Origin: Escherichia coli
Lineage (GTDB): Bacteria; Pseudomonadota; Gammaproteobacteria; Enterobacterales; Enterobacteriaceae
Assembly (NCBI RefSeq): GCF_003334305.1
Contig: NZ_QOWS01000047.1
Length of the DNA stretch: 7,431 bases
Direction: 5' to 3' (one strand)
Below the pieces are notes generated by a model. The model ran no database searches and was not told the origin of the DNA. It worked only from the letters and a program-made list of their open reading frames with translations. This document shows positions 7,053-7,238 of this stretch, piece by piece. Both the position numbers and the translations under genes were made by a program. Within the stretch, counting starts at the first letter, position 1, and each line of letters starts with the position of its first letter.

Positions 7053-7238
7053 CGTAGTTTTTCAATAGCTACACCATGTCACGTAACATGATGCCTGGAT
7101 ATTAACCAAGGAAAGATCATCAGAAGTTCACTTTTTGTACTAAATAATTCGCATTTTATGTTTAAAAATTGAGATATTCCTTATTACCTGAAGCTGTTTT
7201 TTATTGCTTATACATGATCAAATACTCCTTACATAATT

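Follow-up and report, generated by a model that had tools for sequence, protein, structure and literature searches.

An imperfect palindrome beside ISEc1 in Escherichia coli very probably arose by chance in the neutral trailer of an orphan Rhs toxin/immunity module

Does a short palindrome lying between a small Rhs-associated gene and the insertion sequence ISEc1 of Escherichia coli mark a regulatory site or the end of the insertion sequence, or did it arise by chance in AT-rich DNA? We addressed this question in a stretch of 7,431 nucleotides of E. coli DNA (hereafter the window), which is 99.2% identical to strain 504838. The initial annotation described a 16-bp imperfect palindrome with two mismatches, about 25 bp past the stop of a small gene (gene B) and about 160 bp before the transposase, and direct reading of the window agrees with it. 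Seven of the eight symmetric pairs match around an ACGT centre, the reverse complement of CATGTCACGTAACATG being CATGTTACGTGACATG, and the two mismatches are the two members of a single mispaired position pair, C7080/A7085. The symmetry gains two more pairs (7072-7073 with 7092-7093) if a second mispair, 7074/7091, is tolerated. The measured distances are 22 nt from the gene B stop codon (7050-7052) to the palindrome and 161 nt from its end to the transposase ATG.

The window opens with a vgrG gene that is cut by the window start, followed by a DcrB-related gene, an rhs gene and two hypothetical CDS of small size, at 5739-5999 and 5996-6286. AT-rich DNA without annotation then extends for about 820 bp up to the transposase of ISEc1, an element of the ISAs1 family, and nrfB/nfrA lie past the window end (Table 1). 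In strain 504838, the RefSeq annotation of the rhs gene reads 'RHS repeat-associated core domain-containing protein, frameshifted'. We observed that, within 5250-5706, the main rhs ORF loses its frame about 80-100 codons before the end, while another frame continues through DPLGL motifs (5503-5706), and that the tip past the last DPLGL is only about 35 amino acids long. In related strains, RefSeq calls the rhs gene either frameshifted or an internal-stop pseudogene.

Table 1. Features of the Rhs locus and their positions in the window
Feature	Position	Strand	Basis and remarks
Main rhs gene of the vgrG/DcrB-like/rhs T6SS effector locus	1190-5706	+	ORF list and translation; frameshifted near the core/tip boundary, very short tip
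Orphan rhs-CT fragment, a 3′ remnant of the cognate Rhs C-terminal toxin tip	6386-6572	+	Shares homology with the end of the NRZ14408 full-length rhs gene
Gene B, putative orphan Rhs immunity gene (rhsI)	6577-7052	+	Frame translations; frameshift in the A7 run 6712-6718
Non-coding 3′ trailer of the rhs-CT/rhsI module, 54 bp	7053-7106	+	Homology to the NRZ14408 locus (L021) stops at 7106
Imperfect 16-bp palindrome CATGTCACGTAACATG	7075-7090	.	Read directly; as frequent as expected from shuffles
ISEc1 (H-rpt, ISAs1 family), left part	7107-7431	+	Left inverted repeat 7107-7119; transposase ATG at 7252; runs past the window end

The DNA in which the palindrome is embedded has a close counterpart in the corresponding vgrG/DcrB-like/rhs locus of E. 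coli NRZ14408 (L021), where a full-length rhs gene (1713-6572) bears the same tip and is followed by an intact gene B (6577-7053) and then by the same trailer. Window positions 6386-7106 are 98.5% identical to 6386-7107 of that locus, and the homology ends exactly at 7106. Because the same tip, gene B and trailer form an active rhs end in NRZ14408, we read 6386-7106 as a displaced rhs-CT/rhsI module, an orphan that is decaying. A tip fused to a full-length rhs gene, with a small gene directly downstream, was found in L021 and likewise in L018 and L019; in these three loci the gene B homologues lie 2-4 nt downstream of the Rhs toxin tips, and such homologues often stand within arrays of immunity-type genes. 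Full-length homologues of the 158-amino-acid gene B protein (54-97% identity) occur in E. coli, Enterobacter, Kosakonia, Cronobacter and Superficieibacter. Judged from gene order only, gene B would be the immunity gene against this tip. No significant family match was obtained for the tip, gene B or the two small CDS. The tip gave a single weak Pfam match, to CdiA_C (E=0.17), gene B and its homologues have no Pfam match on record, and NCBIfam gave no match.

In the window, gene B does not form one intact ORF. Frame 2 (6577-6774) meets the frame ending at 7052 in a run of A residues, and the length of this run sets the state of the gene. The A7 allele, found in the window and in most genomes checked, is frameshifted; the A6 allele (L008) leaves an ORF of 115 amino acids, and the A8 allele (L009 and L021) has an intact gene B encoding a 158-amino-acid immunity-type protein. 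Orphan rhs-CT/rhsI modules downstream of full-length rhs genes were described by Poole et al. (2011; PMC3150448), and C-terminal displacement in rhs genes by Jackson et al. (2009), as cited in PMC3150448. The present module is similar to these orphans in that the main rhs gene of a vgrG-linked locus is followed by a tip remnant and a small putative immunity gene, and in that another strain has this tip fused to a full-length rhs gene; the palindrome falls in the non-coding tail of the module. However, only the last 190 nt or so of the tip are left here, and most genomes carry a frameshifted immunity gene. The module in this locus is decaying and is not a ready reserve.

On the right-hand side of the module, a comparison of 6900-7431 with 5426 complete E. 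coli genomes gave matches at about 24,400 places in 5337 of them. Most of the matches to ISEc1 copies begin at query positions 202-211, which correspond to window positions 7101-7110, and a minority, which are truncated copies (ydcC), begin at 233. A multi-copy junction alignment fixed the left end of ISEc1 at 7107. The comparison used five other copies, in L003, L004, L005 (two copies) and L007, namely one beside a zincin-like toxin tip at the same nrfB site, the K-12 yhhI copy downstream of rhsB, two near pptA and one by an IS1 fragment. From the equivalent base onward all share CAGGGAAAGATCATCAG, and their flanks to the left are unrelated; within 60 nt on that side, no comparable palindrome occurs in any of them. 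In L001 the element spans 7708-8998, that is 1291 bp. Its terminal inverted repeats are CAGGGAAAGATCA, at 7107 in the window, and the matching CAGGGCAAGATTA at the right end, 1291 bp away, and the palindrome is not involved in them. Right of the ISEc1 end, copies at other sites diverge at once. We found no flanking direct repeat around ISEc1 in L001, and target-site duplications were absent from all copies examined.

These boundaries bear directly on the suggestion, made in the initial annotation, that the palindrome is part of the IS terminus, and on the related idea that it belongs to a transposase-binding region of ISEc1. The proximity is real, since the palindrome ends 17 bp from the start of the element. 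However, those 17 bp place it outside ISEc1, nothing to the left of 7107 is common to the other copies, and the element that starts at 7107 measures 1291 bp with matching terminal repeats. Moreover, the same trailer with its palindrome occurs without ISEc1 in L009, L010, L021, L050, L056 and L066. The suggestion is thus refuted, and we leave it virtually no probability. As a terminal inverted repeat of ISEc1, the palindrome was likewise rejected, being outside the element, absent from the other copies and unmatched by the opposite end.

The junction itself is polymorphic. The third base of the left repeat (7109) is A here (CAAGG) and G (CAGGG) in most copies, including those at the same junction in other strains, and REL606 has CAGGA. 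In E. coli Ecol_517 (L003, 1501), ISEc1 occupies the nrfB-adjacent site with the same right flank and a wholly different left flank, which consists of rhs core fragment sequence with the zincin-like toxin tip upstream. Since the Ecol_517 copy shares its right flank with the window and differs on the left, ISEc1 marks the fixed right boundary of a variable Rhs region. That H-repeats accompany Rhs C-terminal tips has long been known, and they have not been seen to transpose (PMC3032704). The copy described here resembles the H-rpt/ISEc1 elements that accompany E. coli Rhs elements in its length of 1291 bp, its short imperfect terminal inverted repeats, its position adjoining the end of an Rhs element and its lack of a direct repeat; the palindrome, by contrast, lies outside the element and is absent from the other copies.

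Several side observations concern the two ends of the trailer. It stops at the same base whether it is followed by ISEc1 (window 7106/7107) or by a 53-bp linker and an orphan rhs core fragment (7107/7108 in L021, and also in L009). The start of the linker in L021 (CAGAAAGA....CAGAAGT) weakly resembles the left end of ISEc1 (shuffle p of about 0.02). At the other end, E. coli ETEC1739 (L002) carries an IS5 at CTAA (window 7049-7052), which overlaps the gene B stop codon and lies 23 nt upstream of the palindrome. We also observed that window positions 7084-7122, TAACATGatgcCTGGATATTaacCAAGGAAAGATCATCA, which span 23 nt at the trailer end and 16 nt at the IS start, resemble a contiguous stretch within ISEc1, TAACATGCTGGATATTAAAGGAAAAATCATCA (IS positions 620-652; L001 8327-8359), which codes for ..LNMLDIKGKIIT.. 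in the transposase.

This last resemblance raises the idea that the 3′ part of the trailer, the right palindrome arm TAACATG included, may have guided the formation of the trailer-IS junction, the palindrome itself being incidental. The alignment of 7084-7122 with IS 620-652 speaks for it, as do the position-specific shuffles (p of about 1e-4) and the fact that the internal site matches the left inverted repeat (IRL) at 13 of 16 positions and is the only such site within the IS. However, the part of the match in the flank (7084-7105) has E=4 in a BLAST against the whole IS, and its score is equalled by an unrelated 12-mer in control windows, so that the empirical p could be about 0.01. The trailer is also older than the junction, since L011, in which no IS is present, shows homology to it from end to end, and the pattern was spotted after the fact. 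An extended similarity between 5645-5702 and IS positions 593-650 was not above the background of other AT-rich segments, and the 12-mer at 5666-5677 is one of four 12-mers expected by chance. We consider a guiding role of the trailer in the junction to be extremely unlikely.

How often a palindrome of this quality is to be expected was estimated from 500 dinucleotide-preserving shuffles. The 7431-bp window contains three 16-mers with at most one mispair, against 2.87 ± 1.71 in the shuffles. In the AT-rich part (5550-7431) there is one such palindrome, against 1.46 expected, and 81% of the shuffles have at least one; in the unannotated stretch (6288-7251) there is again one, against 0.85 expected, and at least one is present in 57% of the shuffles. 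As the counts for the window and for the local segments match the shuffle expectation, the palindrome is not in excess, which bears out the earlier remark that it could be due to chance in AT-rich DNA. No second copy of the motif was found in the window, the sole other match being the same site read on the opposite strand.

Among close relatives the palindrome does not vary. Of the 5426 E. coli genomes, 576 carry gene B and the trailer, and all of these roughly 576 genomes, as well as 50 metagenome contigs, have the palindrome unchanged. However, since the close copies are at least 99% identical throughout (567 of the 576 genomes), this invariance says nothing about constraint. About three SNP events in the trailer separate the close alleles, at 7074 and 7095, and that they fall outside the palindrome is expected about 35% of the time. 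We looked for diverged alleles with an anchor outside the palindrome, AACGTARTTTTTCAATRRCTA. In GTDB species genomes the anchor retrieved two stretches, one unrelated (L024) and one with the E. coli allele (L025); in metagenome contigs it retrieved 52, all with the E. coli allele except one that is unrelated (L067). Thus no new diverged trailer allele was found by the anchor search in either collection. L025 (GTDB record JAEWTL010000053.1) is classified as part of a Bacillota MAG, yet its gene B trailer and ISEc1 junction are exactly those of E. coli; the contig probably comes from E. coli and was mis-binned.

The informative comparisons come from two diverged alleles. In L011, with 84% protein identity, the corresponding sequence is CATGTCACGTAAGCTG and keeps five of the eight pairs; the right arm is altered with no compensating change. 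In L013, with 76% protein identity, it is CAAATTATGTAATCTG and keeps six: both members of one pair have changed (G-C to A-T), T-A has replaced the C/A mispair, and two pairs are lost. Identity in the trailer is 77% for L011, against 90% in the coding part, and 57% for L013, against 83%. This faster divergence of the trailer than of the coding sequence fits what would be expected of unconstrained DNA. In five more distant loci (L014, L015, L017, L018 and L019; 58-73% identity) no trailer was recognisable and the downstream DNA is unrelated. Over the two informative alleles, then, dyad symmetry is not kept in diverged orthologous loci, and conservation at homologous Rhs loci is for the most part absent; at the five other ISEc1 copies there is none.

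Could the palindrome act in RNA? The annotation had already judged an intrinsic terminator unlikely for want of a T-run, and rightly so: no T-run lies 3′ of the palindrome on either strand, and a terminator scan called no site at 7060-7110. The palindrome resembles a rho-independent terminator in being a dyad shortly after a stop codon, and differs from one in its AT-rich stem, its five usable plus-strand pairs and its missing T-run. With the weak plus-strand hairpin added to these results, this candidate was rejected. A search of 5500-7431 against Rfam gave no match at E<=1 on either strand.

Two other roles in RNA may be imagined, a plus-strand structure stabilising the 3′ end of the rhs-rhsI transcript, or a minus-strand stem of 10 bp with G-U pairs acting on transcripts that leave the IS. 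The place just past the stop codon would suit a 3′-end structure. However, the predicted plus-strand hairpin has only five pairs with a 6-nt loop, is followed by ATGCCTGG, and at -4.3 to -5.4 kcal/mol (z from -0.15 to -0.94) is no more stable than shuffled sequences. On the minus strand both mispairs become G-U, and the resulting 10-bp hairpin is predicted at -12.8 kcal/mol with a z of -1.9, a stability equalled in 8 of 200 shuffles. Because the segment was chosen for containing the palindrome, and the value concerns one of its two strands, this z is no evidence of structure. Neither L011 nor L013 yields a predicted hairpin on either strand, and neither strand has a T-run beside the palindrome. 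An RNA role of either kind would therefore seem highly unlikely.

The palindrome had also been proposed as a binding site for a regulatory protein. Many bacterial operators have the general form of a 16-bp dyad with a CG centre, and the present dyad, invariant in all close alleles and keeping six of eight pairs in L013, one double change included, might accordingly be bound by a dimeric protein regulating the module or the neighbouring IS. However, it is no more frequent than chance predicts, L011 has lost the right arm and is left with five of eight pairs, the window holds no second copy of the motif, and no regulator gene is present in the locus. Its location does not suit an operator either, since it lies past the stop codon of gene B and not at the promoter of a gene that it might regulate. 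No promoter-like site coincides with the palindrome; the nearest match, at 7209-7237, is inside the IS, about 120 nt away, and the IS is in any case a later neighbour, other DNA following the same trailer in L021 and L009. The E. coli operators of CRP, LexA, DeoR, GlpR and the LacI family are not known to fit the dyad in half-site and spacing. The proposal of a regulatory site found no support, and we hold an operator to be very unlikely.

A contrary view may be put together from these alternatives, in which the trailer would not be inert. Its last 23 nt or so, right palindrome arm included, would mimic the sequence just upstream of the IRL-like site inside ISEc1, the H-rpt element having docked there by sequence-directed recombination, or else the dyad would be the operator of a regulator of the module. 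We give this view very little credence. If it were true, sequence-directed docking would help explain the presence of H-rpt elements at the ends of Rhs elements.

The palindrome is most likely ordinary, because its frequency is at chance level, its site is outside the IS and its symmetry is lost in diverged copies. Against chance may be set its invariance in close alleles, the six of eight pairs in L013 and the minus-strand fold, the last two of which lend weak support to an operator or an RNA hairpin. With high confidence, we favour a chance dyad, and we infer that it is without function. It would have arisen by chance in neutrally evolving, AT-rich non-coding DNA, within the 54-bp trailer of a displaced and decaying rhs-CT/rhsI module that happens to adjoin the left end of ISEc1. 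Of the first interpretations, those of an improbable terminator and a possible chance origin have stood, whereas the IS terminus and the regulatory site have not.

The palindrome can therefore be dropped as a candidate regulatory or IS-end element, a clean negative that in itself matters little. The map of the region is now exact, with the left end of ISEc1 and the extent of the module trailer placed to the base. Gene B can be understood as a frameshifted orphan Rhs immunity gene, the intact form of which would, as gene order suggests, be the active immunity gene in other E. coli strains.
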